NCBI GenBank assembly: GCA_964016885.1
Contig: OZ024742.1
Span: 123,566,001-123,630,000 of the forward strand
Origin: Eledone cirrhosa
Lineage: Eukaryota
Reading direction: 5' to 3'
DNA: 64,000 nt
Shown: positions 8,061 through 59,238 of the stretch, in pieces
Layout of the letters: the number at the start of each line of letters is the position of its first letter
How positions within the stretch are numbered: the first letter of the stretch is position 1
Made by a program: the position numbers and the translations under genes
The notes under the pieces: generated by a model
Seen by the model: the letters and a program-made list of their open reading frames with translations, nothing else
What the model was told of the DNA's origin: nothing
Databases searched by the model: none

Positions 8061-8309
8061 CAATATTATAATAATTATTATTATTATTATTATTGGCGAC
8101 CTAAGTAGTAAATCGTATCATCGTGAGCTTCGCAAAGGTTTGTTGTTTTCAGTTGTATAAAATTGCCATTTATGGAAATTTTTTTATTGTTAACTGTATA
8201 TAAGTGCACATACATTGTTTTCTGAAAAGGACACTCAAAAAGATTGGGGCCTTGAGCCCAAAATTTAAACTTTTATAATTATAAAGAAAAAAATTTTCTT
8301 TGAAAAATC

Positions 8310-10455
8310 ATGGCCGACTAACAGCTGAACCAAGTAGCTGAGAGCCTTCCTCACAAACTAACACCTCACACCGACACCACCATTGTAAATATTACTACCT
8401 TTGCCAACACTAAAAATATAAGCAGTAGCAATATTTTAAATTTGTCTCAGGCAGACATTCATTTCCCGCCATTACCAATGACTGCAGGTGTTGAATACGC
8501 CACCCCCACCACCACCACAACGACAACAGAAACAAAAGAAAACAATAAATTATCTCGTGATATCGAAATGAATTCACCCAGAATGAACTCTTCCACACCG
8601 AACACCACTGGCGCCACCACCACCACAACTGAAACTAAAATTAACAATAACAGAAATAACGATAACAACAATAGCAACAATGAGAATAAGAAAATCCTGT
8701 CTTTTGCCAGAGTAGCAAAAAAGTGCGAAGCAACACAGGTAACTCAGGGGGAATTAGAAGAAGCCAAAAGAATGGTAAAGAAAGATGGGTACAAGGTCAG
8801 CCCCCCCCACCTAATAAAATGGAGCATTGGCGCCTATGCACCGTGTCTTTTCGGACTATTAACATAAAATCGCGCCGAGTGGAACGGGCATCCGAGTCCC
8901 AAATCCAAAAGGCTTTGGGACATGTGTGGGCAAAAAACCCCCCCACATCAGACGTAGGCAGAAATATGAAACCGTGGACGTGTTCTTTGAAACAACACAG
9001 GAGGCCAGAAAACACTCCATGGCCCCATTAAGAAGTGTCGACTTCACACTATTCCCAAGCTATTGTGGCCAGAGACTCGTGAAGATCAGGGTGACCTACG
9101 TTCCACCGGCCATCAACATTCCCTGGCTAATGGCTGCCGTCCTCGCCGGCAACGAGGCCAACACCAAGATAATCGAAATAGCGAAAGAAAAGCAGGAGAA
9201 CTGGTCCAGATCTGGGATGGAGCTTCTGATCCAAGCGGACCAAAAAAGCATTGAGGAGATCCCAGAGGCAATAGACCCACTGACGGCAACCACCTCCCCG
9301 TAATCGTCGAGGGCAGAATTCCTAGGTGTGTCGTTTGTGGTGAAGGAATCCATCTAAGTGCTTTCTGCCCTCAGGCTAAAATGTTGAAGCCACCTCTCTT
9401 ACCTACCCTAGTGACTCAACCATCAACACCACCAGAAGCAGAAATGGCAGCAACAACTGTAGCAGCAGAAACAGAAGCAACTGTAACAGCAACAACCCCA
9501 GCAACAGAAGCAAAACCAACACCACCACCACCAAACGCGCCAGAACTAGCACAAGCGCCTACACCATCCAGCACACCACAACCAAAACCAACGCCTGTGG
9601 AGGATTTTCCACTCCCCGAACTATCGCAACTGGAGACAGATTGTGACGCCGAGGAGTGGGAAATGGTATCAGGAAAAAAGAAAAAAAGAAAAAGAAACCT
9701 AAAAAGAAAAAAATCCACTTCCTTCTGCCTCCAAAAACAAAATACAGAGGGAAACAAATAAACTATCAAACAAAAAAGTTAGGACAGCTATGCCACCATC
9801 CACACCAGCATCACCAACCCCATCACCACAAACACCAACACCATCACCATCATTAACCCCAACACCACCATCACCAACACCACAAAAGTCACCAAAAATC
9901 GAAACAGAAACAAACCCACAACAAACGCAAACAAAACAAAACGATACACACTACACAGCATTAAATTTGAACAACAAGGGCGGTGGATTGGCAGTATCGG
10001 TAGAGGGTCGGACGCCATGCTTTCCAGCATAGTTACGTCCCTTTACGATCTGAGTTCAAATCCCGCCGAGGTTGACTTTGCCTTTCATCCTTACGGGGTC
10101 GATAAAATAAAGTACCAGTAATGCACTGGGTAATTGCTGGCCTTGTGCCAAAAGTAGAAACAATTAAATTTGAACAACAAGCAATTATTACAGTACATCT
10201 AACACAACACCACCATCACAGAAAAAGACTACACAAAAACCCAAAAGTTCACACCACATCCACATATACAAATCACTCGCATCAAACAGAAAACGTACAC
10301 GACACTAAAACAAAAATTCCCCAAAGACATCGGAGACTTCCGACAAGCACTCTCCAGGAGGATTTATAAGGACATCCTTCCGGAGGAGGCCACACGCAGT
10401 GAAAAGGATGGAGAAAGGTAAGTGGTCTTTCCCATCCTTTCCACTCCATTTCAAC
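8310..10455 (+). pseudogene. L1/Tx1 ORF1 (gag-like), frameshifted and interrupted by a SINE
   Basis: ORF fragments 8442-8867 (SFARVAKK), 8926-9303 and 9381-9761. Zinc knuckle VEGRIPRCVVCGEGIHLSAFCP (CX2CX4HX4C) at ~9306-9371. Pro/Thr-rich linker and a basic KKKKRKR tract. Confidence 0.75.
9979..10162 (+). mobile_element. Full-length SINE family A inserted in L1 ORF1
   Basis: Perfect 19-bp TSD attaaatttgaacaacaag at 9960-9978 and 10163-10181. Confidence 0.95.
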
Positions 10456-13400
10456 ATGACCTCACTCAGAATAGGCGGCATAAATGCGCGTAGCTTGGGG
10501 TCGTCATGGAAGCAGGGTCACCTGCTCAACGACCTCAGGTCACTAAATATAGATGTAGTGGCCATCAGCGAGACCAGAATCTCCGAAGCACGGGCCTTCG
10601 CACCGATCTTCGGCGGCTACGATGTGTACGCATCTCCCAGCCGTCCTGGATCGGGAGGAGGAGTTGCTGTGCTTTTTCGGAGAGGTTTGGATCTCGCCAT
10701 ACGGGCCATCTTCCTGAACCCAGAAGGTAAGTTGATGGTGCTGGACGTGACCAGCGGAGACGGGCAAGCTTTTGGCTAGTGACCGGCTATGCCCCGACAG
10801 GAGCAGGGCGGCTTGATTTCTTCTGGTGTCTGGAGACCTTTCTTGTAACGTCCCGCACTTTAGTGTTAGAGGGCGACTGGAACGGGATCTTAGATGCACG
10901 CTGGGACTGTGTGGAATTAGCGGATAGGGGAGGAGGGTGCAAGAGTGTCACCAACCTGCTCAGCCGTTTTGAACTGTACCGAGTGGATTTCCCGAATGTG
11001 CCAATGTGGACTTGGACAAATCGCGTAGGGTCATCCACATCATATCTAGATAGAGTATTTTGTGGGAAATAGATAGGTCTAGCATAGGCTGTCCACAATT
11101 CAAGATAGTCAGCTACACGTACCACAAATTCGTGATCTGTGGGCTTTATTTAGATAGGCCTCATAGAGGAGGACCCGGCTACTGGAAGCTAAACGCGTCC
11201 TTACCGGCGCGCAAGGCCTACAGAGACCGGATTAGCGAACTAGTTAAGCGGGTGTTGACGGGGGCCATCGTCAACAACAAGTGGTGGTTTTCTTTGAAAA
11301 GAGCGATTAGAATAGAGTCCATTAGGTTTAGTAAGGCTTTAGCAATAGAGAAAAATAGAGCAGAGGGAGAATTAGTTAGAAAATTAGACGAGGCGCTTAG
11401 CAAAGGCATCGCGACCGACGTACTTGCGGCGAAATTGGCCCTTGACCAATTCTTCAATGCAAAGCACGAAGGCTGCGTTGTCAGAGCTAGGGTGCGTGCT
11501 CTCAGACACGAGGTGACGAAAGACGTTCAATGGGCCCGAGTGGCGGAGGCGCGTCGTGGCAACAAAGCCACTCCGGTCTTTGGTGGACCACGACGGGCGC
11601 ATGCTACTCGATCCCGGGCAAATGTGTGAAGCTTTTCAGCGACATTTCGCACAGCCGTTCGGGGGCAGAGGCGGACCGGATCGAGGGATGGACTTTAGTG
11701 TCTACCTCGACGGACTGCCGCGGCTCTCGACCACTGAGGCGGAGTGTTGCGAAAAGCCGATAACAGCCGCTGAAGTACGGGAGGCAATGACTGGCTGCAC
11801 AAGGGTTAATTCGCCTGGTTTGCATGGTCTGCCCTATGAATTTTACACAAAGAAACCAGACTTGTTCGGAGGCCTCTTGGCGGACGTCTACTGCAACTGA
11901 CAACAGAACGGGAGAATTCCCAGCTCTGTGAGCCGAAGAGCTGTGGCGCTGCTGAGAAAGGATCCGAACAAGAGGGATAACATAGATAATTTGAGGCCCA
12001 TAAGCCTGCTAAACACCGAGTTCAAGCTTTTGGCCAAGGTGCTAGCAAAGAGGTTGGCGCTTGTCGTTGGTGGTCTGGTGGGAGAGGCGCAGACATGCTG
12101 CGCCATTCCCGACAGATCCATCCACGACAACCTCCACCTCATGCGATACATCGTAGAGAGGGTAGCTAGGGAACCTGGCACGGGTGGGTCCTTGATCAAT
12201 TTAGATCAGTCGAAAGCTTTCGATAGGGTTGACCATCGTTACCTAGCGGCAGTCCTGAGGGCGGCTGGCTTTGTGCCCGTCTTCAGAGGCTGATCGCTGC
12301 CATGCACAGCGACATCTGCTCTGTAGTGAGAGTGAACGGTCCCCTTTCGGAACCGTTCAACATCATGCGCACGGTCCGCCAAGGATGTCCCCTCTCGTCC
12401 CTCGTGTACGTATTGACTCTCGAGCCATTACTGCACAAACTGGAGACGCTGAGTGGGATCCCGCGCGAACTATAATGCGGAAGATCCGTGTCAGCATATG
12501 CGGACGATGTCACCGTAGTGGTGTCGAACGCCAAACACATCGAGGCGATCGGCACTACACTAAGAGAATACAAAGCGGTGTCAGGAGCAATGATCAACCA
12601 GGAAAAGTCAGTGGGCCTGCAGCTCGGCACCTGGAGAGGCAGGTCCATGCCGTCCAACAGCGTCGCCGGGCGCTGGACGGACAGACTGGTTAAATTGCTG
12701 GGGGTCTGGTTCGGTCCGGACCTCCAGACGGACAAAAACTGGGACGAGGTGACGAGCAGGGTGGCTTCTCTCACCCAGAAATTGGCGGAGAGGAAGCTAT
12801 CCCTGAAAGGTCGAGCGGAGGTGGCTAACGCGTACATCACGTCCGTTATCTACTATCGCCTGACCGTCGTACCTTGTCCTAAGCCCCGACTGACTGCGCT
12901 GGAGCGTTTGCTCTTTCGCTTTTGTGGAAGGGACTCGCTCCGATGGTCAGGCGGTCCATCTGCTGTCAACTCCCGCTACGTGGAGGGCTGGGCATGCCGT
13001 GGCTGATGATGCGCAGACATGCGCTCAGGCTACGACATCTCCACCTCTTCCTCGAAGCTGATCAGGTGTGGTCGCCGTTTGCTAGACGCGTCTTTCCCCA
13101 GCTCGTCTCCTTGACGGAGCTGCAGTCCTGGGTCAAGCGAAGACCGAGAGGGAGCGCTTAGAGACTGGAATGTCTTTAGGCGCTCACAGCCCTCGACCAA
13201 TCGGGCAATGTGATCGGTGGAAACGCCACCTTGGCGTTCTATCGAGGATTAGTTGAGGGGAAGAGCGACGACGTACTTGCAGAGACTCTAGGCGTCCACG
13301 AAAATCAACTAGCCAATCTCTTCGGGTGAACTTTCGGGCCGGGGCCTATGGACAACTTCCAGAAATCCTTGGCCTGGCAGTGCTACTGAGGAGCTTTGCC

Positions 13401-13864
13401 AGTTCGGGATAAACTCTACAGGCATGGAGGTGCCGTCAGCCGGGCATGACCGAGATGCGCGCAGGGCGACGAAACTTTCCTGCACGCACTCGTCCAGTGT
13501 CCGAGCATTGCTGACTTGTGGGTTTATGTCGAACATCTGCTGTCACCTGTAGAACGGATCCGGCAACAGCCGAGTCCATCGTGAGGATAGCCCCGTCCTC
13601 TTCTTTTAGCCGGGAAGGGCAGGCAGTTTTTTTTTTCTGTCTGGTGGCCATGGCGAACGAGATAGTATGGTGGACGCGTCTGAAAGGGCTGAAGACGAGC
13701 ACTTACCTCTTCGGTGATGCTCTGATTAACTTTTTCCAATTTCATTTGAAAAGGAAAATCAGGGTAGAGAGGGAAGTGTTCTCTTCCCAACCTTTCGTTG
13801 AAAGATGGGTTGAGAGGTAGGAATGGCCCGAGTGAATGGACCTACTCTGCGAATATGGCTGTAA
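10456..13864 (+). pseudogene. L1/Tx1 ORF2 (APE endonuclease + reverse transcriptase), multiple frameshifts and stops
   Basis: APE motifs INARSL, AISETR, EGDWN, SYLDRV. GYWKLN linker. RT motifs SPGLHGLPYEFY, RPISLLNTEFKLLAK, LDQSKAFDRVDH, VRQGCPLS and YADD (~12497). Confidence 0.92.
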
Positions 13865-14133
13865 ATTGAAGGTGGACGACTGGGAGAGGACACTTGCCGT
13901 GGTGGTCAGGGTCACCGTGGCTTTTTTTAATGGGCTTTCTCCACGATGGCCCTCGGAAGTCTCCCCCTATTGGGGAATTTGTCATTGTTCTTTTTATTAT
14001 ATCCTGTTTTTTGTTTTTTTACACGCAGAAATGCCCATTTGTACCGTTCTCTATTGTCCTGTACTGTCCTTAATATCCACTTTGTGTAAACCCTTGTGGT
14101 TAATAAAGAAAGCATTATTATTATTATTATTAT

Positions 14134-14291: not shown

Positions 14292-17200
14292 CTTTGAGTC
14301 TCAGTCATTGATGTTAGTTAACTGGAAAGTTTGTTGAAATGAATATCAAGCCGCTACCTGCAGCCTCAGATATTCAGGATGTTTTGGAGGGTCCTTGCTG
14401 TTCCCAGCAAGCATGCCTTTTGAAGTGTTCCAAAAAGCGGGATGGACTAATTTTTTTTAACCATCCTTGGAAACTCTTTGAGATAGTACCTAGAGCACCT
14501 ATGAAAATCGGGACGACTCTGACTTCATGGTAGTTCCAAATCCTTTTTACCCCCCAATTTAAGTCCTGGTATCGGTTAATTTTCTCCCTCTCCTTTTCTT
14601 GCACTCTCGTGTCAAATGGGCAGGCTACATCTACAATCAGGCATGATCTTTTTTTCCTTGTCCAAAACCGCCAGGTCAGGCCTATTGTGTTCCAGTTTCT
14701 TGTCCGTCTGTATCCTAAAATCCCACAGCACCTTCACCTGATCGTTTTCTATCACCGACTCTGGCTTATGCTCATACCTCTTCTTAGAATGTGGTAAATT
14801 GTTTACTTTGCATAGGTGCCAGTGGATCACCATGCCCATCACATCATATCTCAAGCCCTTATAGTGAGCTAGGTGTTTACACTCGGATACAATGTGAGCC
14901 ACAGTCTCCTCTCTCTCTCCCCACAGATCCTACAAAGTGAGATAGCCTCCCCCTTGTAAATATGGTGTTTCACCCACTTCGTTCTGAGGGCCTACTCTTG
15001 CGCAGCCATTAGCATTCCTTCTGTAGCCTTTTTAAGCTCTCCTCTTTTTAACCAGTTCCATGTCTGTGGATCTCTAAATCCAGTTTTCTCAAATAAGGTA
15101 CCATGAAGGGATTTTTCATGAAGGTTGCTCTTCCTCCTTGCCGTTATTTCCACCTTGGACATCCGGGTCTATTGTCCTCTCCTTCAATACAATTCTGATC
15201 ATTGGCTCCCTACTGTCAGTCACGTATTTGAACAGGTTGTTTGAACACAGTCCTCTATGCTGATAAGACCTCTTCCACCTTCAGATCTCTCTAAGTAGAG
15301 TCTATCGACATCTCTCCTCTTGTGGAACATGTTGTAGATAGTCAATAGCTTCATAGTCTTCCTATCCATTTCTTTTTGTTCAGCAACATTCCATTTCAGA
15401 ATACCCGTACTGTACCAAATAATAGACACATCTCGGTAGTTCACTGCACTTATGACATTCCTACTATTTAGATGTGATTTTAATACGCTCCTTACTCTCC
15501 TAATGTACTCAGATCTTATCAATTCCTTCATTTTTTGTTCTTGATGTCATCTGCCTCCAGAACATCTAAATATTTGTATCCTTCTTCAGTGTCAATTTCC
15601 TTTATCATCTCACCTGTTGGTACCTTGATTCCGTTGCTTCTGCTCAATTTACCCCTCTTCATCACTGGGACTCCATGCTTACTAATACCAAATTGCATAC
15701 ATATATCATTGCTGAAAATACGGACAGTGTCAACAAGTACATCCAACTCCTTCTCACTCTTCTTAAAGAGTTTAAGATAGTCCATGAAGAGGAGGTCGTT
15801 GATGGTAAGCTCTCCTTTTCCCAACTTGTATCCTGCTCTCACTTTTCGCAGTATAATGGTCAGTGGTATCAGGGCAAGGACAAACAACAGAGGGGTCAAA
15901 CTATCTCCCTGAAAGATAACTCTCTTGATCTTCACGCCTCCCAAGGATTCTCTACCTGATGTTAACTCTGTTTCCCAGGACTTCATACATTTGCTCAACA
16001 ACTGTCTGATGATATCTGCCACCTTGGACATCTCCAGGCTTTTGGTTATCCAAGAATGAGGTACCATGTCGAATGCCTTTTTGTAATCTATCCTTCTCTT
16101 AGCAAGACCAGTTTCTCCTCTTGCAATTCCTCATTACCATATTATCAATGGCCAGTGGATTGGCAGTATCGGTAGAGGGTCGGACGCCATGCTTTGACGC
16201 ATAGAGTTACGGCCCTTGCCATTCTGAGTTCAAATCCCGCCGAGGTTAACTTTGCCTTTCATCCTTATGGGGTCGATAAAATAAAGTACCAGTAATACAC
16301 TGGGTAATTGCTGGCCTTGTGCCAAAAGTAGAAACAATTACCATATTATCAATAAGTAACTGGTCCTTTGTACCACTGGACTTCTTTCGGCATCCTTTCT
16401 GTTCGTCCGGTAACAAGTTGTTTATGTGGAGGTGATGGTTGATTTCCTCAGACACAATGCTTGTTAACAGTTCCCACATTACGGACAGACATATGATAGG
16501 TCTATAGTTGGTAACATCATTACCCTTGATTCGGTCTTTCATTACTGTGGTACCTTTTGTCAACCACTATGGCACCTCACCCGACATCAAGCAGTCATTG
16601 AACATGGTTGTCAGTTTCGGGTGGAGGGATGTTATATTTTTGATCCAATACCCTTGCACACCATCTGGGCCTGGTGATTTCGAGTTGGTTAGTTTATTGG
16701 CCTGCCCTTTAAGAGTTTCAACTGTGATTCTCAAATCAGTTTGTTGGTGTGCTTGTTCACTAATCTCCTTTTGTACTGTCTCAATCCACACTGCCTGATC
16801 ATTGTGTTCAACACCCTGCTCCCATATTCCTCTCCAGAATGTCTCAGTTTGTTCCGCCTCAGGGATCAAGTCATTGCCTCTTTCTCTCCCTTCAAGCCAT
16901 CCAAACAACATCTTCTGGTTGTTGTCAAACATGTGGTTCTGTCTATAGTGACTGACTCTGCTCTCATACCGCATAATCTTTGCACTCTTTGCTACAGTGC
17001 GTTGCTTCAGTTCCTCTATGATGATATTTAGCTTTTTCCTTCTAGTTTTGTACTTTATTTCCAATCTTTTTTTGTGTCTATGTTTTGTAGTGTCCCATTC
17101 AGTAGTGTCCCATTCAGTGTCATTACTCATTTACTTGATTTGACCATTCAGTCGTTTCTTCCACCAAGGTTCTGATCTTACTTGTTTGTTGTTTCCTCTC

Positions 17201-18065
17201 GTTTTTATGCCAAGTAATTTCCTCACCGCATTTACTGTTGCTTTGAGGATATTGTTGCATAGGTGAATGTTCCTCGCCTGGGATAACTTTGTTTACCTTA
17301 GCTGTTGTTAGTTTTAACTTTTTCGTGTCTACAAATCTTAGGTTTATAGGTTTTCCACTATCATTGTTCATTTCATCTACCACTAAGTTTAGGATATCAA
17401 CCAAATCTTCTCCTAGCCCGTCAGCATTCATTTCCTCAATGGCCGTATATTTGTTACAGATGTTATTTATTTCAGCATTCAGATAATTGTCTGCTTCGGA
17501 TGTTTCCTCAGTTCTCTCAACCTTTTCACCTTCATTTCTCACTGGTTCGTTTGTCTGGCATACTCCACTCTCCATTTCTAACCTAATCTCTCTGCTGAGT
17601 TCCTCCAGTTCCAGCTCGCTTATCCACCCATTAGTTCTTATTACCCGAGCCTACCCGGCCAATTCATCTAATTTAAATAGTCCAATAGTCCAATCTCGTT
17701 CCAGATATTATGTATCCGTTTCCTATAGCCTTTTTCCTTGGGTTTACTCTTCAGGTAACATTCGATGATACGTCTATTCAATTCTTTCGTCACATTGGTT
17801 CTTGGCCCTTTCCTTCTTCTTCCTGCAGCACCAGTAGTATTTGGATGACAGCGAGGTCCCTGTTGCTGAGCCTGGGGGCACTAGCTGGGTGAGAGTCTGT
17901 TAGGCGTTTCAGTCTCCTCTTCACCGTTATTCGAACTGTTTAGGTTCGACATTTAAACACTCATATCGTGGATTGGTGAATGTATGGTTACATAACCACC
18001 GGTGATTTCATCACACCCAGTTATTTCATCACCCCGGTGAGTTTAGCGTGGCACCATCCACACTG
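14292..18065 (-). mobile_element. R4/Dong-like RLE-type non-LTR retrotransposon, copy 1 (near full length, decayed)
   Basis: Minus-strand ORF fragments carry RT motifs (KSPGPDGVQGYWIK, NYRPIICL, EQKGCRK, TKDQLLID, IFQGDSLTPLLF, LLFMD, YKYL) and C-terminal CCHC plus restriction-like endonuclease (VLWDFRIQTDKKLEHNRPD). Ends in (TAA)n. The 5' boundary is approximate. Confidence 0.9.
16150..16336 (+). mobile_element. Full-length SINE family A inserted into the Dong-like RT
   Basis: 17-bp TSD attaccatattatcaat at 16133-16149 and 16337-16353. Confidence 0.95.
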
Positions 18066-18353
18066 TAAACGAACATAAATAAATAAACAAATAAATAGAT
18101 ATAAACTTAAAAAAATAAACATAAGTTTCATTGTAATGTTTGAATGTCTTACTTAGTTTTTTTTTCCTTTACGTTTTTCGTTTTTCAAGGCCAGTAACAT
18201 CGGTTACTAGTGTTGTTGTTACAGCTGCTGTTTTTGATTTTAGCTACGTGGGAAGTAGGGGTTGTTGCGTTCAAAACCTTTGAAATTTGTTTTTGTCAGT
18301 GTTCTGTTCTATAATCTTTCGACTTGTTGCTTATTATTATTATTATATTATAG

Positions 18354-18545
18354 TTGGATTGGCAGTATCGGTAGAGGGTCGGACACCATGCTTTCCAGCA
18401 TAGTTACGTCCCTTTACGATCTGAGTTCAAATCCCGCCGAGGTTGACTTTGCCTTTCATCCTTACGGGGTCGATAAAATAAAGTACCAGTAATGCACTGG
18501 GTAATTGTTGGCCTTGTGCCTAAAGTAGAAACAATTATTATTATT
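18354..18545 (+). mobile_element. SINE family A
   Basis: Near-identical to 9979-10162; its (ATT)n tail abuts the 3' end of Dong copy 2. Confidence 0.92.
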
Positions 18546-18548
18546 GTT

Positions 18549-20240
18549 CTTTGAGTCTCAGTCATTGATGTTAGTTAACTGGAAAGTTTGTTGAAATGAA
18601 TATCAAGCCACTACCTGCAGCCTCAGATATTCAGGACGTATCGGAGGGTTCTTGCTGTTCCCAGCAAGCATGCCTTTTGAAGCGTTCCATCCCTGGAAAC
18701 TTTTTGAGATAGTACCTAGTACGCCTATGACAATCGGGACCACTTTGACTTCATGGCAGTTCCAAATCCTTTTTACCTCCCACTTTAAGTCCTGGTATCG
18801 GTTAATTTTCTGCCTCTCCTTCTCTTGCACTCTCGTGTCGAATGGGCAGGCCACATCCACAATCAGGCACGATCTTTTTTCTTTGTCCACAACTACCAGG
18901 TCAGGTCTATTGTGTTCCAGTTTCTTGTCCGTCTGTATCCTAAAATCCCACAGCACCTTCACCTGATCGTTTTCTATCACCGACTCTGGCTTATGCTCAT
19001 ACCACTTCTCAGAATGTGGTAAATTGTTTACTTTGCATAGGTGGTAGTGGATCACCCTGCCCATCACATCATGTCTCCAGCCCTTATAGTGGGTCTGGGC
19101 TAGGTGTTTACACTCGGATACAATGTGAACCACAGTCTCCTCTCTCTCTCCACAGATCCTGCACAGTGGGCTAGACTCCTCCTTGTAAATATGGTGTTTC
19201 AACCACTTCGTTTTGAGGGCCTGCTCTTGCGCAGCCATTAACATTCCTTCTGTAGCCTTTTTAAGGTTTCCTCTTTTCAAACAGTTCCATGTCTGTGGAT
19301 CTCTGAATTCAGTTTTCTCAAAGAAGGTACTATGAAGGGATTTTTCCTGAAGGCTGCTCTTTCTTCTTGTTGTTATTTCCTCCCTGGACATCCCTTGGTC
19401 TATTGTCCTCTCCTTCAGTACAGTTCTGAGCATTGGCTCCTTACTCTCAGTCACGTATTTGTGTAGGTTGTTTTTCTCCATCTGAACACAGTCCTCTATG
19501 CTGACAAGACCTCTTCTACCTTCAGATCTCCTTAAGTAGAGTCTATCGATATCACTCCTATTGTGGAACATGTTGCAGATAGTCAATTGCTTCTTAGTCT
19601 TCCTATCCATTTCTTTTGTTCAGCAACATTCCATCACAGAATTCCCGCACTGTACCTAATAATAGACACAGCTCGGGAATTTACTGCACTTATGGCATTC
19701 CTACTGTTCAGATGTGACTTTAATACGCTCCCTACTCTCCGAATGTATTCAGTTCTTATCAATTCCTTCATTTTTTTGTTCTTGATGTCATCAGCCTCCA
19801 GAGCACCCAAATACTTGTACGCTTCTTCAGTGTTAATTTCCTTTATCATCTCACCTGTTGGCACCTGGATTCCGTTGCTTCTGATCAATTTACCCCTCTT
19901 CATCACAAGGACTCCACACTTACTAAGACCAAATTGTATACATATATCATTGCTGAAAATACGGACAGTGTCAACAAGCACATCCAACTCCTTCTCGCTC
20001 TTCCCGAAGAGCTTAAGATAGTCCATGAAGAGGAGGTGATTGATGGTAAGCTCTCCCTTTCCCAACTTGTATCCTGCTCTCACTTTTCGCAGTATAATGG
20101 TCAGGGGCATCAGGGCAAGGACAAACAAAAGAAGGGACATACTATCTCCCTGGAAGATACCTCTCTTGATTCACGCCTCCCAAGTATTCTCCAGCTGATC
20201 TTAACTCTGTTTCCCAGGACTTCATACTTTTGCCCAACAA
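18549..20240 (-). mobile_element. R4/Dong-like element, copy 2 (5'-truncated)
   Basis: ORFs 19634-20140 and 18603-19610 (RT C-terminal part, CRICGEREETVVHIVSEC, RLE motifs). Same 3' UTR as copy 1. Confidence 0.92.
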
Positions 20241-20269
20241 TTATTATTATTATTATTATTGTTGTTATT

Positions 20270-21304
20270 CCTTGAATCTCAGTCATTGATGTTGGTTAAC
20301 TGGAAAGTCCGTTGGATTGAATATCAAGCCACTACCTGCAGCCTCAGATATTCAGGACGTATCGGAGGGTTCTTGCTGTTCCAAGCAAGCATGCCTTTTG
20401 AAGCGTTCCAAAAAGCGTGAAGGGGCCGATTTTCTTTAACCATCCCTGGAAACTTTTGGAGATAGTCCCCAGTGCGCCTATGACAATCGGGATCACTTTC
20501 ACTTCATGGCAGTTCCAAATCCTTTTCACCTCCCACTTTAGGTCCTGGTATCGGTTAATTTTCTCCCTATCCTTCTCTTGCACTCTCGTGTCGAACGGGC
20601 AGGCCACATCCACAATCAGACATGATCTTTTTTCTTTGTCCACAACCACCAGGTCAGGTCTATTGTGTTCCAGTTTTTTGTCCGTCTGTATCTTAAAATC
20701 CCACAGCACCTTCACCTGATTGTTTTCCATCACCGCCTCTGGCCTATGCTCATACCATTTCTCAGAATGTGGTAAATTGTTTACTTTGCACAGGTGCCAG
20801 TGGATCACCCTGCCCATCACATTGTGTCTCCAGCCCTTATAGTGGGTCTGGGCTAGGTGTTTACACTCGGACACAATGTGAACCACAGTCTCCTCTCTCT
20901 CTCCACAGATCCTGCACAGTGGGCTAGCCTCCTCCTTGTAAATATGGTGCTTCAACCACTTCGTTTTGAGGGCCTGCTCCTGCGCAGCCATTAGCATTCC
21001 TTCTGTAGCCTTTTTGAGGTCTCCTCTTCTCAACCAGTTCCATGTCTGTGGATCTCTAAATTCAGTTTTCTCAAAGAAGGTACTATGAAGGGATTTTCCC
21101 TTAAGGCTGCTCTTCCTCCTTGATGTTATTTCCTCCTTGGACATCCCCTGGCCTACTGTCCCCTCCTTCAGTACAGTTCTGAGCATTGGCTCCTTACTAT
21201 AGGTCACGTATTTGTATAGGTTGTTTTTCTCCATCTGAACACAGTCCTCTAGGCTGATAAGACCTCTTCCACCCTCAGATCTCCTTAGGTAGAGTCTATC
21301 GACA

Positions 21305-21306
<2 letters not shown>
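20270..21306 (-). mobile_element. R4/Dong-like element, copy 3 (5'-truncated)
   Basis: Same 3' UTR as copies 1 and 2; flanked by (TAA)n on both sides. Confidence 0.92.
20344..21234 (-). CDS. Uninterrupted C-terminal fragment of the Dong/R4 ORF (CCHC zinc finger + restriction-like endonuclease)
   Basis: 296 aa: CRICGEREETVVHIVSEC, RH, RPDLVVVD...IVDVACPFD...EKINRYQDL...IPIVIGALG. Confidence 0.8.
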   Translation of the reverse strand: MEKNNLYKYVTYSKEPMLRTVLKEGTVGQGMSKEEITSRRKSSLKGKSLHSTFFEKTEFRDPQTWNWLRRGDLKKATEGMLMAAQEQALKTKWLKHHIYKEEASPLCRICGEREETVVHIVSECKHLAQTHYKGWRHNVMGRVIHWHLCKVNNLPHSEKWYEHRPEAVMENNQVKVLWDFKIQTDKKLEHNRPDLVVVDKEKRSCLIVDVACPFDTRVQEKDREKINRYQDLKWEVKRIWNCHEVKVIPIVIGALGTISKSFQGWLKKIGPFTLFGTLQKACLLGTARTLRYVLNI

Positions 21307-21362
<56 letters not shown>

Positions 21363-21498
21363 CATCATCATTATCATCATCATTATAATCATCATCCTCA
21401 TTATTATTATTTATGATTTGGGAGACGCTTCAAGATCTTGCATAAACATGTTCAAAGTTAACAAGAGTGTTTAAACTTATCAAACTAGTTGATATTAT

Positions 21499-28453: not shown

Positions 28454-28973
28454 TATATATTGGTAAACGGAATAGAAAATGCTGACAAATTGTTCACAGT
28501 TGAAAAATGGTTTAATTAGGAATAAAAGAGTATTAGTGATTGTATGGGTTAGTATTCAGTTGTGGTTTTAAGTTTTTAAGTTTTTACCGGTTGCGCATTT
28601 CTAAATGCTTTTCAAAAATAATTTTGAGATAGAGTGTCCGTGCTGTTTGCTCTGATCTGATTAGTTTTGGGAATTCTACCTGTTTTTATGTTAAAAAAGT
28701 GGCTCCAACGTTATTTTTGTGTTGCAAAAATGCTTGTGGTCAAAACAATTTTGATTGGTCGGTAGAGGTCATGTGAATGTAAAAAGTTGATTTTGCGCCA
28801 AGACTGTTTTTATGTTAAAAAAGTGGCTCCAGCAAAAATTCTTGGTCAAAACAATTTTGATTGGTCGGTAGAGGTCATGTGGAAAAAAATTTTTTTTGGG
28901 TTTTGCGCCAAGATTGAGAAATGACTCTTTCACAACAAATATGTGTGTGTGTGTATGTGTGTGTGTGTGTGTG

Positions 28974-29010
<37 letters not shown>

Positions 29011-29580
29011 AGTAGTAGTAGTAGTAAGGTGTTCGATGCTGCGACAATGGCCAGCAGCGATGTGTGTCAAATGGCTATTAAGATAAGTGTGTGTGTGTGT
29101 GTATAGCAGAGTAATTCAATGGTCAGTAAGAATGTGTCTGAAAGCAATGGGGGGTATTTTAGGATGTCAAAAGATATTTTTCAGCTTTTGTCTTATACGG
29201 AGAAGTGTGTGTGTATGTGTGTGTCTATGAGTCTCTTTGTATGTTGATGTACGCGTGTGTATGTGTTTGTGTATATATATATGTGTGTGTGTGTGTGGGT
29301 GGACCAGTATTTTTTTTTGCAACACAAAAATAACGCTGGAGCCACTTTTTTAACATAAAAACAGGTAGAATTCCCAAAACTAATCAGATCAGAGCAAACA
29401 GCACGGACACTCTATCTCAAAATTATTTTTGAAAAGCATTTAGAAATGCGCAACCGGTAAAAACTTAAAAACTTAAAACCACAACTGAATACTAACCCAT
29501 ACAATCACTAATACTCTTTTATTCCTAATTAAACCATGTTTCAACTGTAAACAATTTGTCAGCATTTTCTATTCCGTTTA

Positions 29581-29591
<11 letters not shown>
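28454..29591. repeat. Inverted-repeat element with ~275-bp near-identical arms, embedded in (TA)n
   Basis: 28454-28730 is the reverse complement of ~29312-29591. Internal direct repeats at 28680-28775 and 28804-28880, plus (TG)n tracts. Confidence 0.9.
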
Positions 29592-33756: not shown

Positions 33757-33901
33757 GTATATATATATATATATAACGAAGGAAATGTGGTAAGGAACCA
33801 GATGGACCATAACGCACCAAAGTACTCAATACTTATGGTAATTTTAGTCCAGAATTAGCCGTCGAAATGCCTTGAGCTCAGCCGTCGGGGTCCTACTCGT
33901 T

Positions 33902-33950
<49 letters not shown>

Positions 33951-34189
33951 AAATAGTAGAAAGGAAGAAGATTTTTTTCAGTAGAAAATGTTGATATATA
34001 TGTATATATTTAAATGTTGATATATATGTATATATATAAATGTATATATATATACATATATATATATATACATATATATATACATATATATATAAACATA
34101 TATATATATATACATATATATATACATATCTCTCTCTCTCCCTCTCTCTCTCTATATATATATATAATATATATATCTATATATCTATA

Positions 34190-34235
<46 letters not shown>

Positions 34236-34273
34236 CATATATATACAAATAAAGATATATAAATATATATCTG

Positions 34274-34329
<56 letters not shown>

Positions 34330-34339
<10 letters not shown>

Positions 34340-35244
34340 CAATATCGGAGAAAGCTTTTTAGCGATACTCCGGCCAAATTGCAACTCACTCAACAAACAT
34401 TAGAAAATAAGTGATTATATTCCCAATTATGCGTTCGGGGTGCTAACTAAAAGTAATGCGTGGAAAATTGGCTGTATTATTTCATATGAGACATATCGAA
34501 TATATCTCTTCCCAGACGGACGTCTCGTTTCATTATAGGATTCCTACAATTTGGGTGAAATTATACCAATTTATGTAGGAGCTCGTATACCATCAATAGA
34601 TATATATTCAAGTGGGCTCCTATAATTCATCAGTGGGTGCCCCAATAATACTAATATTGATAATCTAACCAACATCAGTATTTAGCGATAATCATCATCT
34701 GTGCCTGAGGTATCTGTCAGGATGCCAGTCCAGCAGTTCTAATGAAGTGCTCAAACTGATTCCAAAATGAGGAAGTAAATTACCGCCAAAAAAAAACAAT
34801 ACATGCGCATGACAATGAACTCTGAAAGGAATTCAGGCCACGTGCTAAGAACTCAATTGGGAATTGAAAAAATATCTATGTGTGTACAAAATTTGATGAC
34901 ACTCACAGATATTTTCTCGGGCAAAATAACAGAATGATATATAAGGAACAATCAATATTCATATATAAAAAATAAACAAAGAAATGCTAACCTTATACCG
35001 GGAAATTCAATTCTGCTGCGCCAAGAGTAAATAAATAAATACAATATCGGAGAAAGCTTTTTAGCGATACTCCGGCCAAATTCCAACTCACTCAACAAAC
35101 ATTAGGAAATAAGTGATTATATTCCCAATTATGCGTTCGGGGTGCTAACTAACAGTATTGCGTGGAAAATTGGCTGTATTATTTCATATGAGACATATCG
35201 AATATATCTCTTCCCAGACGGACGTCTCGTTTCATTATAGGATT
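34330..35244 (-). mobile_element. Non-coding partial-tandem element with a hammerhead (retrozyme-like or non-autonomous PLE); 702-bp period
   Basis: 34330-34542 recurs at 35032-35244. Full HHR in the first repeat and only the 3' half in the second. Flanked by (TA)n. Confidence 0.75.
34511..34637 (-). ncRNA. Type I hammerhead ribozyme with a 77-nt stem II insertion
   Basis: Minus strand: CCCA-CUGAUGA-AUUAUAGGA[77 nt]UCCUAUAAU-GAAA-CG(AGACGUC)CG-UC-UGGG. Canonical core, 9-bp stem II, GUC cleavage triplet. Confidence 0.85.
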
Positions 35245-35304
35245 ATATATATATAAATAAAAATAAATATATATAAATAAATAAATATATATATATAAAA
35301 ATAA

Positions 35305-35368
35305 AGAAGATCTCGTTAAGGCTGAAAGCAGCGATTCTTTGCTTAAACTTTAATCTGTTATTTTAATA
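35305..35368 (+). mobile_element. Fragment of the Helitron family at 3993-5583
   Basis: gttaaggctgaaagcagcgattctttgcttaaactttaatctgttattttaata matches ~4450-4502 and ~5069-5121. Confidence 0.75.
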
Positions 35369-39689: not shown

Positions 39690-40085
39690 TAGAATTATTT
39701 GATAAGATATATACTCAATTTCCTCTCCCAATTAGAATAATCAACCACACAAAAAAAAAATTAAAACAGGCTATAAGATTAAGGCACCTGTGAAGAAATA
39801 ATAGATAAATAAGCGATAGGCATTTATTCGCAATCAACAGCCATATAATATTTACCCATCATTTCAATAGCACGTGGAAATCGATTAAATATATCGTCAG
39901 CCATTCACAATTAGGTATAAAATTAAAGTTAGAAGAAAAAATGCATATACACATACCAGGATCACGTTTCTACCGTTAGGGTTTCGTTCGCTTTCGGAAA
40001 TATCCTATCAAGGATAAATTCTCGAGCTTCGAACTCATCAGGAAACAAACTCACTTGGACAAAGATTTTTCTTAAATCTTCCCCA
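39690..40085 (-). mobile_element. Hammerhead-bearing repeat family (pLTR-like), homologous to 55765-56075 and 56355-56570
   Basis: Shared blocks such as ctcccaat(t/c)ag(a/c)ataat, atcaacagcca and tcatcaggaaacaaactca; abuts (TA)n. Confidence 0.7.
39966..40046 (-). ncRNA. Type I hammerhead ribozyme with extended stem II
   Basis: Minus strand: GUUUC-CUGAUGA-GUUCG[39 nt including hairpin UAUCCU/AGGAUA]CGAAC-GAAA-CC(CUAAC)GG-UA-GAAAC. Cleavage triplet GUA. Confidence 0.85.
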
Positions 40086-40104: not shown

Positions 40105-40568
40105 ATATTGTTATACTTTGGGAGGGTCATGTTGCCAATAAGAAACACACGTACCAGTTGCTTTCACTTCAATTTATTATAATACATTTATAAATTTAGG
40201 AATTTATAAATTTCCGGTTGGTTGGTTGGTTCCACAACCAGATGATTGTTTATATATTGTCAAAGTTTTTCGTCACACATTATGTGACCTCTTCAGTGAC
40301 TGTGGATTCTTTTCTTTGTTTTTGTGCCGCTCCTTTGTTCTGTCCTACGCCATCAAAACAAGATGGCGTAGGACAGAACAAAGGAGAGGCACAAATGTGT
40401 GACGAAAAACTTTGACAATATATAAACAATCATCTGGTTGTGGAACCAACCAACCAACGTAAATTTATAAATTCCTAAATTTTTAAATTTATTATAATAA
40501 ATTGAAGTGAAACGTCTGGTGCGTGTGTTTCTTATTGGCAACATGACCCTCCCAAACCATAACAATAT
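40105..40568. repeat. Long palindrome (inverted pLTR-like duplication)
   Basis: Perfect 25-bp inner stem 40330-40354/40362-40386 with loop aaaacaa; outer arms ~40105-40285 and ~40390-40568. Confidence 0.9.
40259..40300 (-). ncRNA. Minimal type I hammerhead motif (slightly degenerate)
   Basis: Minus strand: GUCA-CUGAAGA-G-GUCACA(UAAUG)UGUGAC-GAAA-AAC-UU-UGAC. Confidence 0.6.
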
Positions 40569-40620
40569 CGGTTTCAACACACATTTTCAGATAAAGAATC
40601 TTACTAAACAAATTCAGAAA

Positions 40621-40671
<51 letters not shown>

Positions 40672-40748
40672 ATATATATTATGAAGAGAGAAGAAACATT
40701 TAGATATAATTAGTAATAAAATGTATCATACCTAAACTGCTCCTAGAT

Positions 40749-40838
40749 TCCTCGACTACGTAGTTTCGTGGCATAAACAAAAACAATACATCATAAATAT
40801 ATAGAGTCCTTGCGAGGTCTGCCGACTTATCAAGAGGA
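40749..40838 (-). ncRNA. Type I hammerhead, U3:A8 core variant (downstream repeat on the minus strand)
   Basis: Minus strand: UCCUC-UUGAUAA-GU(C)GGCA[46 nt]UGCCAC-GAAA-CUACGUAG-UC-GAGGA. Confidence 0.75.
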
Positions 40839-41340
40839 TACCTCATTTTACTAGTCTCAAGAACGCGTCTACACGACGTGAGAAAGAATCCCAAAAGGCG
40901 GAGGGGGAGATAGTCACGCGATATAACGGTCGAGAAACAGAGCTAAGCCTCTTATAACCCCGAAGAAAATACCACGGAGGTGGAGGGGTATTTATATCGA
41001 AGCCGTAGAAGAGGTGGTGAAGGGGGAGAGAAGTATGAGTAATGGAAGCTTTCCAGCAGTCCCCACACTTCAAAGATTGCTCGACCAGAGGGAGTTATTA
41101 ACAATATATTTAGAAACACACAGATACATGCGGGGACACACATATACATGAATGCATCCGCACCCAACCGTGAGTTAAGGGTGCCAACTTCACCGATGTT
41201 GCTCAATGAATGACTGGGACAGACCAATCCGGTTGAACTAGACTGAACCAGTATCAGAGTTAAAAATACATTATGAAGAGAGAAGAAACATTTAGATATA
41301 ATTAGTAATAGAATGTATCATACCTAAACTGCTCCTAGAT

Positions 41341-41430
41341 TCCTCGACTACGTAGTTTCGTGGCATAAACAAAAACAATACATCATAAAGATATAGAGTC
41401 CTTGCGAGATCTGCTGACTTATCAAGAGGA
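41341..41430 (-). ncRNA. Type I hammerhead, U3:A8 core variant (upstream repeat on the minus strand)
   Basis: Same motif as 40749-40838, offset 592 nt; stem II 5' strand GUCAGCA pairs slightly less well. Confidence 0.7.
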
Positions 41431-42297
41431 TACCTCATTTTACTAGTCTCAAGAACGCGTCTACACGACGTGAGAAAGAATCCCAAAAGGCAGAGGGGGA
41501 GATAGTCACGCGATATAACGGTCGAGAAACAGATCTAAGCCTCTTATAACCCCGAAGAAAATACCACGGAGGCGGAGGGGTATTTATATATAAGAGCCCA
41601 CTTGTATAAGTATCTGTTGATCTTATACAAGCTGCGATACTTGCTTCCCAAATTGCGACTGGGCTTTCTAACGTGCCACTAAGCAAATGTTATTCAATTA
41701 TAGAATAAATTATTTGTATATGTAGTTATACTTTCAGTATATCGGGGATAAATGTAAATTTGTGTCCCCATGCGCCTGAATACATGAGTCCACTTGTCCA
41801 TTTGATGGTTGTAATAGTATATGTAGTACTATGCGCCATCACATTTTCTTATAACCCCCACCCCCATCCCCTCTCACTTTCTCTCTCTTTACCTATATGT
41901 ATAATACATACAGTATATTACTGTACGAATATGTGTATAATTATACGTATGCAATAGAGCAATGTACGATAATCGATCTATAATTATAAAGTTAAGTTCA
42001 ATTCTTCAGTTTCCGATGAAGAATGGGGTGAAAACATATATTTTGTTTTTAGTAATTACACAAATATGATTTCGTGATGAAAATGGAAATGAAACAGTTA
42101 TGGTTCAATATTGTAATTGTTTTTCTGCAACGAGAGGAAGTAAAGAAAAACATTTAAGAATTTTGAATACAATCTTGTCGCTAGAATAGTGATAGTTTCC
42201 TGAGAATTTCACATTGATGATGATTGATCATCAGCTCTTCAGATTTATTTCCACGAAGTGAAAGATCAATCACATATTTGCACACTGTTGATATTGT

Positions 42298-56752: not shown

Positions 56753-57334
56753 ATTAACACTTAACATTTAATATTCTACCATACTATTTCATTCTAATAC
56801 CATTATAGATATTAAAGGATTGTAAATTACACGAGTAAATCAGACAAAGTTGGAATTCCTAACTTCCTAGACACCACCCTAAACCTGAACACCGAGCAAT
56901 ACAGAGCAATACCGAGCGAACCCTAACAATACAGGCAGAGCAGAATCAAATAGGCACCATGTGCCCGACACCACCACACGGGCGGTGGGGACTAGTGCGC
57001 TTAACCACGAGATGGAGCACAATATGAGTAGCAGTCTCAGGCGTGACGCTAACCACCCAAGGACGGACGACCCCAACCGCAGGAGACGTGGGGGGTAGGA
57101 AACGGGCGAGCACCCCACGATGGATCTCCCGGGGCGGACAACGACCACCCCACAAATTCGGGCCGCGAGGATAACAAAAAGCATAGACGCCAAAGGGGAA
57201 GCAGCAGTGCGGAAACCACCAGCAACCCAACAAATCTCCAACAAATCACGAAGCCCCCGACCCACACATATAGGAGGAGACACCGAAAAATCACGTGGTA
57301 CAACCCACCCTACGCAGCGGCCCTAAAGAAAAGC

Positions 57335-58102
57335 TTGGCCCGATTATTCTTTGGAGCACTTGACAAATGCTTCCCGAGGGACCACAGATACCACATGATC
57401 TTCAACAGACACACTGCGAAGCTTTCGTATTCCACCACGAGAAATTTGGCCCAACACATAGCTAGCATCAACAGAAGTAGGCTTAAAAACCACACACAAC
57501 CAGAAGATGGCAATACAAACACTCAGCAGAACCATGTGAAAGGAGGGAAGGAGGGACCCAAAGCCCACCTAAGAAACCCAAACAGACCCGAGGACCCCCC
57601 ACCGAGCCTGGGGGAAGACCAACATGTAACACATAACGGGAACCCTAATCTAGGCACGCAGAGGCCGACCACCCTCTGCAACTGCAGAAACCCCGAATCA
57701 TGCCCCCTTGGTAATGAATGCCTCAAGAAGAACCTAGTGTACGGTTGTAGGGTTAAAACCCCCAACTCCGAACACCTCTACATAGGAGCCACATCAACGA
57801 GCTTTAAAGACCGCTGGTACAACCATCGCCATTCATTCAAGAAGGAGGCCAAAAGGAAAAGCACAGCTCTCTCCGACCTGATCTGGAATCTTAAGCTGGA
57901 CAGGACCCCATACTTTCTGGCCTGGTACATAATCAGGAAAGTACCACCCGATAAAGGGGGATCTTGCATATGCAAACTATGCCTGAACGAGACCCTCGAG
58001 ATACTAAGAGGTGGAAGCGGCCTGATAAACCTCAGAACCGACTTCTTCGGGACATGCAGACACCTTAAAGCCGGGACCTTTCTCAAGATATATGAACAGT
58101 AG
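57335..58102 (+). CDS. Penelope-like GIY-YIG endonuclease domain (open C-terminal fragment)
   Basis: LDKCFP...IFNRHTAKLSYS, CNCRNPESCPLGNECLKKNLVY...LYIGAT...FKDRWYNHRHSF...TALS..IW.LK, CKLCLNE, CRH. Confidence 0.85.
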   Translation: MARLFFGALDKCFPRDHRYHMIFNRHTAKLSYSTTRNLAQHIASINRSRLKNHTQPEDGNTNTQQNHVKGGKEGPKAHLRNPNRPEDPPPSLGEDQHVTHNGNPNLGTQRPTTLCNCRNPESCPLGNECLKKNLVYGCRVKTPNSEHLYIGATSTSFKDRWYNHRHSFKKEAKRKSTALSDLIWNLKLDRTPYFLAWYIIRKVPPDKGGSCICKLCLNETLEILRGGSGLINLRTDFFGTCRHLKAGTFLKIYEQ

Positions 58103-58915
58103 CAACACAAGAAGATGTGAACTCTCATACCAATCTATCCAACATATTCTGACCTTGAGATTGGTTATAGCACACACACACTTTATCCTACATTATTTCT
58201 CACTTCTCCATATTCATTTTCATTACTTTTTCACCATTTTTCATTTATTCTTCATTCTTTATTCTCTATTTATTTATTTATTTTCAAATTATACAAATTA
58301 TATTAATTATTTTATTATATTATTTATTTATTTTCTGTTTTCTTCATTTATTGCCTTATATTTCTTCATATACATGGAATAACCGCCCCCCCATCACCAC
58401 TATGATGGTGGCAGGAGGATGAAGGAAAAAAAACACACTGGATACTTCTAAATTGTTAGCAGCAGCAAGATATAAGCTGACCACAACACCAACAACACTA
58501 CCAGAATAATGGTAGAGGTCAAATGTACTGAACAATAGCAGGAAAAAACACTACAGGGAGCCTCACCTCAGAAAGAATTCTATAGACTTCTGACTGAGGA
58601 ATGCTCTCAGAACTGACCAATGGGAAGTTTGACACTTTTTTTGTTATTTTGGTCCTTTAACACCTTGTCCCTTCTACCATTTTATCAATTTTTAAGCTAA
58701 CTCCAACAATAACAACACTTAGAATGAGGAATGTTCTAATAACTGACCAATGAGAGGAGAAGAGGACCTTTGACACTGAAATTCGTTTGTTTGAATTCAT
58801 ATGAATCCAGTTCCTCAGTGAAACAACAACCCAACAAGGAGCTGGGCATATCAGAGTATTGACAATACTGTACACGTAAACAACATATGTACTTGTCTAT
58901 ACCATACTAATTCAA

Positions 58916-58970
58916 ACTGCCTGAAGAGGTCACAGCCAAAGATGGCTGTCACTGAAATATATATAGCAGT
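58916..58970 (+). ncRNA. Minimal type I hammerhead at the 3' end of the Penelope element
   Basis: ACUGC-CUGAAGA-G-GUCACAGCC(AAAGAU)GGCUGUCAC-U-GAAA-UAUAUA-UA-GCAGU, immediately followed by AATAAA (58971-58976). Confidence 0.85.
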
Positions 58971-59238
58971 AATAAACGAAGCTAAATTTTAATCATTTGA
59001 CTTTTATTTAACTTTATTTTACTATACTCCGGAATAACCAAACCAACCTGCGCACTTCGTCGAGTGCTCCAGCCTGCATACTGAGGTGTTGGTATACAAC
59101 CAACATAAACTCAAAATGTATATTTATATATATATATATATTATATTAAGGATACTATTTATGGTTATCTATATACTAAAACTTTTTATAGTTATGTATA
59201 TTTTAAACCCTAAACCCTAAATTATCTCTCTCTCTCTC

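Follow-up and report, generated by a model that had tools for sequence, protein, structure and literature searches.

A 702-nt non-coding retrozyme family in Eledone cirrhosa with a branched loop II insert in its hammerhead and a set of insertions that begin at the predicted cut site

Metazoan non-LTR retrozymes are described in the accessible text of Cervera and de la Pena (2020, PMC7229834) as non-coding, low-GC tandem units with a type I hammerhead in each, dispersed without LTRs, co-occurring with Penelope-like elements (PLEs) and possibly inserted by copying of a circular template, a model proposed there and in the available part of PMC4209133. The family described here likewise has a low-GC non-coding unit, a hammerhead in each repeat and dispersed copies, some of them dimers or multimers. 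Its unit is 702 nt, compared with about 170-400 nt in the accessible text of PMC7229834, its loop II carries a 77-nt insert of two hairpins, and its copies are mostly sub-monomer, 5'-truncated and set in (TA)n. For the retrozymes of that article both circles and cleavage were demonstrated, whereas the 702-nt family is known here from genomic sequence alone. The PLE derivatives in the open part of Li, Clavereau and Pollet (2026, bioRxiv 10.64898/2026.07.22.740005) range from 51 to 972 bp, which includes the 702-nt unit, and likewise co-occur with PLEs. Terminal-repeat homology was given there for 21 PLE annotations in Xenopus, whereas none was found here against two families, and under the two-ribozyme rule of that preprint the present copy, with one complete ribozyme, is not 'active'.

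The Poseidon PLE of the green anole (Frangieh et al. 2024, PMC11167929, accessible text) resembles the family in its internal start of reverse transcription downstream of the hammerhead, which was shown for this lizard element, and in its AT-rich targets and partial tandems. Poseidon is autonomous, has two start sites and inserts without the need for ribozyme cleavage, and in that text none of its reads stopped at the cut site; in contrast, the 702-nt family has a single 3' end and a sharply defined group of copies that begin at the cut. Hammerheads with a pseudoknot in place of the loop-loop contact of stems I and II, including the type I ribozyme of human C10orf118, were described by Perreault et al. 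(2011, PMC3088659), whose available sections place such pseudoknots in all three hammerhead types and state that they were needed for fast cleavage in the tested cases. The predicted pseudoknot strand here differs from these in that it opens a 77-nt branched loop II. The plant LTR retrozyme, with type III hammerheads in LTRs, a PBS and a PPT, is unlike the present element, which has a type I hammerhead, a partial tandem layout and variable 5' ends. In the accessible main texts, with few subscription papers among them, we found neither this family nor a retrozyme with such an insert described, and no account of a cut-site footprint in a genome; examples of long stem II may be held in file S2 of PMC8557442 and in the supplements of bioRxiv 10.64898/2026.07.22.740005. 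The retrozyme class is already known, and this family stands apart from it by the branched 77-nt loop II and the class of copies starting at the cut.

The insertion and its hammerhead

The element lies in a window of 64,000 nt, the whole stretch of DNA analysed, and its features are collected in Table 1. The insertion is ~914 nt long, is truncated at its 5' end at unit position 486 and reaches its end in (TA)n near 34331. When the region was compared with the window by BLASTN, 34326-34542 aligned with 35028-35244 as a 217-nt repeat of 97.7% identity (E 5e-104), for which an offset of 702 fits and offsets of 701 and 703 do not; the ~213-bp block at a 702-bp offset reported in the first-pass annotation was thereby borne out. 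Unit positions are numbered from 35027 as position 1, with the predicted cut between positions 513 and 514. The upstream partial copy does start inside a hammerhead, as had been stated, and retains only its 3' half, with a cut site between 35217 and 35216. The unit is non-coding, with a GC content of 35% and a longest ATG-started frame of 44 aa when circularised. At 33780-33900 and 35310-35360, the ends of two other short repeats were observed, which recur beside family copies at many loci, the (TA)n tracts being landing sites common to several repeats.

Table 1. Features of the insertion and its flanks, in window coordinates
Feature	Position	Strand	Basis
Whole insertion, 1.30 units of the 702-nt non-coding retrozyme, subfamily A	34331..35244	-	BLASTN, sequence
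Upstream hammerhead, 3' half: stem II 3' strand, GAAA, stem III, stem I 3' strand	35213..35242	-	sequence, repeat alignment
Long hairpin within the unit body	34866..34918	-	self-inverted match, fold
Predicted pseudoknot 5' strand, GGGC just 5' of stem I	34639..34642	-	predicted; invariant in 10/10 A, B, C copies
Complete type I hammerhead	34511..34637	-	motif scan of both strands
Predicted pseudoknot 3' strand, GCCC, first insert bases	34614..34617	-	predicted
Insert hairpin 1	34582..34612	-	fold; of 13 pairs, 2 changed on both sides, 3 on one side
Insert hairpin 2, UCCUACA/UGUAGGA and a short inner helix	34542..34580	-	fold; C-G to U-A in subfamilies B, C
Tail, ~185 nt, cut site to fixed 3' end (UGUAUUUA then TA)	34331..34514	-	fixed 3' end
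(TA)n-rich target, 3' side of the element	33904..34330	.	sequence
TA/TAAA-rich target, 5' side of the element	35245..35305	.	sequence

The complete hammerhead contained a stem I of 4 bp (CCCA/UGGG, 34637-34634 with 34514-34511), a core of CUGAUGA (34633-34627) and GAAA (34531-34528), a stem II of 9 bp (34626-34618 with 34540-34532) closing the 77-nt loop II, and a stem III of 3 bp with a 7-nt loop; GUC precedes the cut site, which is predicted between 34515 and 34514. The core features of a type I hammerhead are present, namely the CUGANGA and GAAA core, three stems, an NUH cut site and an open stem I. The motif scan agreed with the first-pass annotation on a complete canonical ribozyme whose 9-bp stem II closes an insert of 77 nt. 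The hairpin UCCUACA/UGUAGGA assigned to this insert was also found, but it is not the only one, since hairpin 1 precedes it. Among 128 subfamily A copies, each core column of the hammerhead kept its base in 124-128. The fold of 34480-34680 had a z of -4.0, with none of 200 shuffles equally good; the minimum-energy fold lacked stem I and reached -56.0 kcal/mol, compared with -49.9 kcal/mol for the active fold without pseudoknot. No Rfam model reached its gathering threshold anywhere in the window. In subfamily C the whole of loop III is a perfect palindrome and in subfamily A it includes one, which suggests cleavage as a dimer, by analogy with the animal ribozymes in the accessible text of PMC4209133. 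Directly before the cut site, subfamily A carries a 4-nt duplication (unit positions 506-513) relative to B and C; the same duplication occurs in one B copy (L193) and may be a scar of ligation or of a template jump.

Sibling subfamily B is ~80% identical to this element and subfamily C ~67% identical, with a unit near 765 nt, and all three subfamilies keep tandem units of about 700-770 nt. Covariation was examined in three A, three B and four C copies, the 10 of 15 loci tried that fitted the extraction pattern. In this alignment 95.6% of the cells pair, compared with 31-45% in slid controls, and 6 of 45 pairs carry changes in both bases: stem II and hairpin 1 account for two each, stem I and hairpin 2 for one each. 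Six double-changed pairs were reached in 78 of 500 shuffles, with only three independent lineages, and the compensatory changes thus support the stems and the insert hairpins, short of statistical proof. Judged by this comparison, the loop II insert is a conserved branched structure, and the pairing of stem II, on which the earlier ribozyme reading had hinged, and that of the insert are kept across A, B and C.

The first bases of the insert are complementary to the 5' flank of stem I, and a GGGC-GCCC pseudoknot of 4-5 bp between them is predicted here as reasonably likely. Its four core pairs are invariant in A, B and C and give zero covariation, with a chance complementarity of 11% for A alone. 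Two unrelated long-loop hammerheads of the window (near 40047; near 40830 and 41430), picked after inspection, have 6-7-bp complements at the same position in other letters (chance 2.1% and 2.5%). Between A and C, conservation was 0.78-0.84 in the tail, 0.74-0.78 in the insert and 0.50-0.69 in the body, the tail and the ribozyme core being the best-conserved regions. Because it is more conserved, the tail is a better candidate for recognition by the reverse transcriptase than the insert, and by analogy with the accessible text of PMC11167929 the ~185-nt tail is likely the region of binding and start. The insert had been proposed as a functional module for either a tertiary contact or such recognition; the predicted pseudoknot makes the former plausible, but the latter found no support.

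Other hammerheads were observed in the window and in sampled loci. About 1.5 units of a different repeat with a period of ~595 nt and two hammerheads occupy 40680-41590 on the minus strand, probably the other retrozyme of the first-pass annotation; its hammerheads carry the U3-A8 variant of the core and a long loop II, their loop III is a palindrome, and a pseudoknot may form in them. Head to head with its 5' end lies a 45-nt fragment of subfamily B (41589-41633, plus strand), consisting of a stem II strand and insert hairpin 1 and possibly a template-switch piece. At 39965-40047 on the minus strand, a further type I hammerhead was located whose loop II measures 39 nt and which may form a pseudoknot of 6-7 bp; the sequence ends in (TA)n ~290 nt later. 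The flanks of L051, L066 and L122 contained hammerhead-like motifs with stem II regions of 47-85 nt, and long stem II seems common in this genome. A 277-nt inverted repeat, 99% complementary and with arms 583 nt apart, was also observed at 28454-29590; one of its arms resembles repeat ends found beside family copies.

Family ends and the cut-site footprint

A similarity search of the 3.0-Gb genome gave 2,503 candidates, of which 40 were scored, with copies of 94-97% identity on many contigs. A 24-mer near the 3' end had 925 exact matches in the genome, with none for the reversed-pattern control. It was exact in 65 of 96 copies that had not been selected by it, so that a total of ~1,370 unit ends at ~1,200 loci was estimated. 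The mean divergence from the family consensus was 2.4%, and the element is almost certainly one copy of a young non-coding retroposed family.

The ends were read in 86 loci, obtained from the first 100 matches of the 24-mer by position after merging, with two duplicate loci dropped and one locus read by hand; the sample was selected on the 3' motif and is unbiased at the 5' end. The 3' end lay at unit position 695 or beyond in 84 of the 86 loci and was identical in all of 28 loci selected at the cut site, two of which had internal rearrangements before it. These 28 loci, which had not been selected on the 3' end, showed no second 3' end. The 5' ends of the 86 copies were scattered along the whole unit, and the summed unit sequence per locus ranged from 41 to 2,509 nt (up to ~3.6 units), exceeding 702 nt in 15 loci; at least two complete ribozymes were present in 6. 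At the 3' end, (TA)5 was found in 76 of 85 loci, compared with a background of 3.5%, and TA repeats stood at the 5' end in 60 of 85. Target-site duplications came to four candidate strings in 85 loci, one of them convincing (L123, ~20 nt), with (TA)n masking others, and inverted arms were present in 2 of 85 loci (one pair).

Scattered 5' ends combined with a fixed 3' end mark target-primed reverse transcription, and the mid-ribozyme start of the present copy is therefore ordinary 5' truncation. This start, 28 nt before the copy's own cut site and among the scattered 5' ends, has no special status, and its reading as a mark of a circular template was abandoned, the same pattern being found in any 5'-truncated target-primed insertion. 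The permuted starts that had been anticipated genome-wide were likewise seen at the 5' end but not at the 3' end.

The 5' ends were concentrated near the predicted cut. Three of the first 30 loci started at most 6 nt from it, and in the sample of 86 loci unit positions 511-530 held 13 ends, compared with 3.45 expected (Poisson p 7e-5), part of this cluster lying on an AUAUAU tract where microhomology is possible. Junctions of three A/T bases directly joined to a T-starting motif were then counted genome-wide, giving 28 matches for position 514, 1 for position 512, 3 for position 640 and none for position 301, at comparable match rates of the motifs in sampled copies (131/154, 130/152, 130/183 and 84/119, respectively). 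One of the 28 junctions is an internal deletion (L232) and two look like one duplicated locus (L215 and L216), which leaves 27 true 5' ends at the cut, 26 of them independent. Of the 27 copies, 26 consist of nothing more than the ~189 nt between the cut site and the fixed 3' end, and the remaining one has a further full unit. The junction T is possibly derived from the target, so that the start is at 514 or 515. Starts at the exact base account for about 2-3% of loci, and for perhaps a tenth with the broad cluster. The simplest reading of these copies is run-off at the 5' end of ribozyme-cut RNA, in which case the cut RNA likely served as template for reverse transcription, and the footprint argues that the hammerhead very probably cleaves RNA in vivo.

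Two further clusters of 5' ends were observed among the 86 loci, one at unit positions 81-100 (~34947-34928; 6 ends, 1.3 expected) in an AT tract, where AT microhomology can also create peaks, and one at positions 351-354 (~34677-34674; 5 ends). Both could reflect microhomology, a pause at a hairpin or a start of transcription.

Templates and the candidate helper

The cut site was read through in 59 of 86 sampled copies, and the exact sequence of stem III and the cut site was present in 105 of 128 copies, nearly all the others having point changes. Such scarless read-through fits a ligated circle or an uncut tandem RNA alike. At polymorphic sites, adjacent units were discordant in 44 of 802 comparisons (5.5%), compared with 36.5% between loci, and they shared 2.9 rare variants per kb versus 0.12 between loci, a 24-fold difference; since adjacent units share a haplotype, jumps between RNA molecules must be rare. 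Away from the polymorphic sites, a derived divergence of 2.6% between adjacent units, compared with 2.8% between units of different loci, indicated that most second units date from the insertion itself. Shared haplotypes and old second units fit copying of a circle and also fit an uncut transcript of a homogeneous tandem source. An A-to-G excess as a mark of RNA editing at the RNA stage was absent (3.6 versus 4.0 per 1000). Reverse transcription from a circular or tandem template, proposed in the first-pass annotation for this copy, is thus supported for the family.

A ligated circle is the template that we regard as moderately probable, and three alternative explanations were weighed against the same observations. 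The peak at 514 would arise on an uncut ribozyme if the enzyme stalled at the folded RNA or if the ends were joined by TA microhomology, and a 9-bp hairpin and the AUAUAU tract do lie just 3' of the cut, the broad cluster is centred near 523 and only three control positions were counted. The exact site nevertheless gave 28 junctions versus 1 two bases away with an identical single-T microhomology, and the cut site had been predicted from the ribozyme before counting, which makes this explanation improbable. Growth of the tandem layout as DNA after insertion, in the manner of a satellite, is suggested by arrays L028 and L132, in which mutations are common to subsets of units, by 4 of 50 adjacent pairs that differ by at most 0.5%, and by the local amplification proposed in the open part of Li et al. 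(2026, bioRxiv 10.64898/2026.07.22.740005). In arrays of at least three segments, 25 sites were common to unit subsets, 133 were single and 36 were shared by all, and some long arrays therefore grew or were converted later as DNA. As the source of the tandem layout in general, such growth is highly improbable, since the 2.6% versus 2.8% divergence dates most units to about the time of insertion and the partial upstream units have arbitrary starts directly joined to (TA)n. The same element and helper could also work with no circle at all, the read-through copies coming from uncut tandem transcripts and cleavage being a side reaction that yields only the 189-nt copies. For the lizard PLE, the accessible text of PMC11167929 gives uncut RNA as the dominant substrate. 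Tandem loci exist here (at least two ribozymes in 6 of 86), stem I is weak with the active fold 6 kcal/mol above the minimum, and identical units in a source array would likewise yield shared haplotypes. Many haplotypes were present among 53 near-full units, yet adjacent units of an array nearly always match, and repeated 5' truncation would shorten arrays unless they were regenerated, whereas three subfamilies have kept tandem units of about 700-770 nt. On balance we consider this circle-free explanation unlikely, though of appreciable weight.

The helper is likely to be a PLE. Two abundant protein-coding families with long open frames are present in the genome, and each has a hammerhead ~165 nt before a 3' end adjoining (TA)n; from their motifs we take both to be Penelope-like. 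This reading also leans on the clade descriptions in the accessible text of PMC8557442; searches of Pfam and PDB with the proteins found nothing significant. The 702-nt family shares with PLEs a fixed 3' end past the hammerhead, 5' truncation, partial tandems and microsatellite targets, and the optional PLE marks of an inverted 5' arm and a second 3' end occurred in 2 of 85 and 0 of 28 loci. A comparison of the unit with 36 loci of the PLE-like family found in the window, and of the A/B/C profile with 20 loci of the second PLE-like family and with the sampled loci and the window, detected no homology beyond a short terminal motif. With two families compared, this TGTA-TTTA-like motif, shared with one of them, was the sole common sequence. 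Carriage by a LINE, with the element as a SINE-like passenger, would likewise produce 5'-truncated copies with a constant 3' end and a tail of simple repeats, and no partner was found by sequence among the two PLE-like families compared. It is nevertheless quite improbable, as the 3' end is an internal point of the tandem unit that copies run across, and the distance from hammerhead to end and the targeting of (TA)n match the PLE-like elements of this genome and the published PLEs in the available part of PMC8557442.

Several elements of these kinds were observed in the window. A 5'-truncated copy of the first PLE-like family (57053-59130, plus strand) has a C-terminal GIY-YIG-like frame, a hammerhead at 58916-58970 and a 3' end in (TA)n, and elsewhere the frames of this family reach 890-894 aa (L179-L181). 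The second PLE-like family is very young, with frames near 1,280 aa, a CX4CxxC linker, a tandem period of ~4.3 kb and two 3' ends roughly 55-60 nt apart, unlike the 702-nt family with its single 3' end and rarely two-armed copies; mirror-image end pieces of it lie at 40140-40620, with a hammerhead at ~40255-40300 on the minus strand. Broken LINE-like frames with many copies of a SINE-like repeat occupy 8300-13900 and 14370-21430, presumably L1/Tx1-like on the plus strand and RTE-like with a C-terminal nuclease motif on the minus strand. The sequence upstream of two subfamily C copies was considered as a lead to the helper and rejected, being an unrelated repeat inserted in the same (TA)n. Exact motif matches of this repeat (L283-L312) number 8,876; its hammerhead has a long simple stem II, two 3' ends occur, and its copies are often found as inverted pairs.

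Proposed mechanism and its meaning

The account that we favour, with some confidence as a whole, is that the RNA of a young retrozyme likely cuts itself and is likely copied, probably often as a circle, into (TA)n by a PLE-type reverse transcriptase from ~185 nt past the cut. Loci with two ribozymes would be transcribed and cut into 702-nt monomers, and the first bases of the insert are predicted to pair with the sequence flanking stem I, a contact that would replace the usual one between the loops and push the two hairpins outward. A PLE endonuclease would nick (TA)n, and reverse transcription would start at one fixed internal site, the UAUUUA tract. If the template were linear cut RNA, the enzyme would reach the cut after ~189 nt and run off, and copies starting there exist; if it were a ligated circle or an uncut tandem RNA, the enzyme would read through and fall off at scattered points, and copies of up to ~3.6 units were seen.

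A more speculative and rather doubtful extension is that the insert is a switch and not cargo, with the pseudoknot and a small hairpin competing for the same bases, so that the ribozyme would fire in tandem precursors and be off in the circle; the 5' half of one ribozyme might in addition pair with an orphan 3' half lying 702 nt upstream. If this were true, one and a half ribozymes would be enough for copies of 1.3 units, such as the present one, to set free a full monomer, and the genome would be a base-resolution record of the use of cut, circular and uncut templates.

In the accessible literature, cutting in vivo and the use of cut or circular templates have been put forward as proposals for PLEs and animal retrozymes, and the one biochemical PLE study found cleavage dispensable. 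Insertions that start at the predicted cut base would provide genomic evidence of cleavage in the germ line, together with a ready assay for it. The 77-nt branched loop II offers a natural example of a hammerhead with structured cargo, and since it was missed by the Rfam models, such ribozymes may be under-counted.
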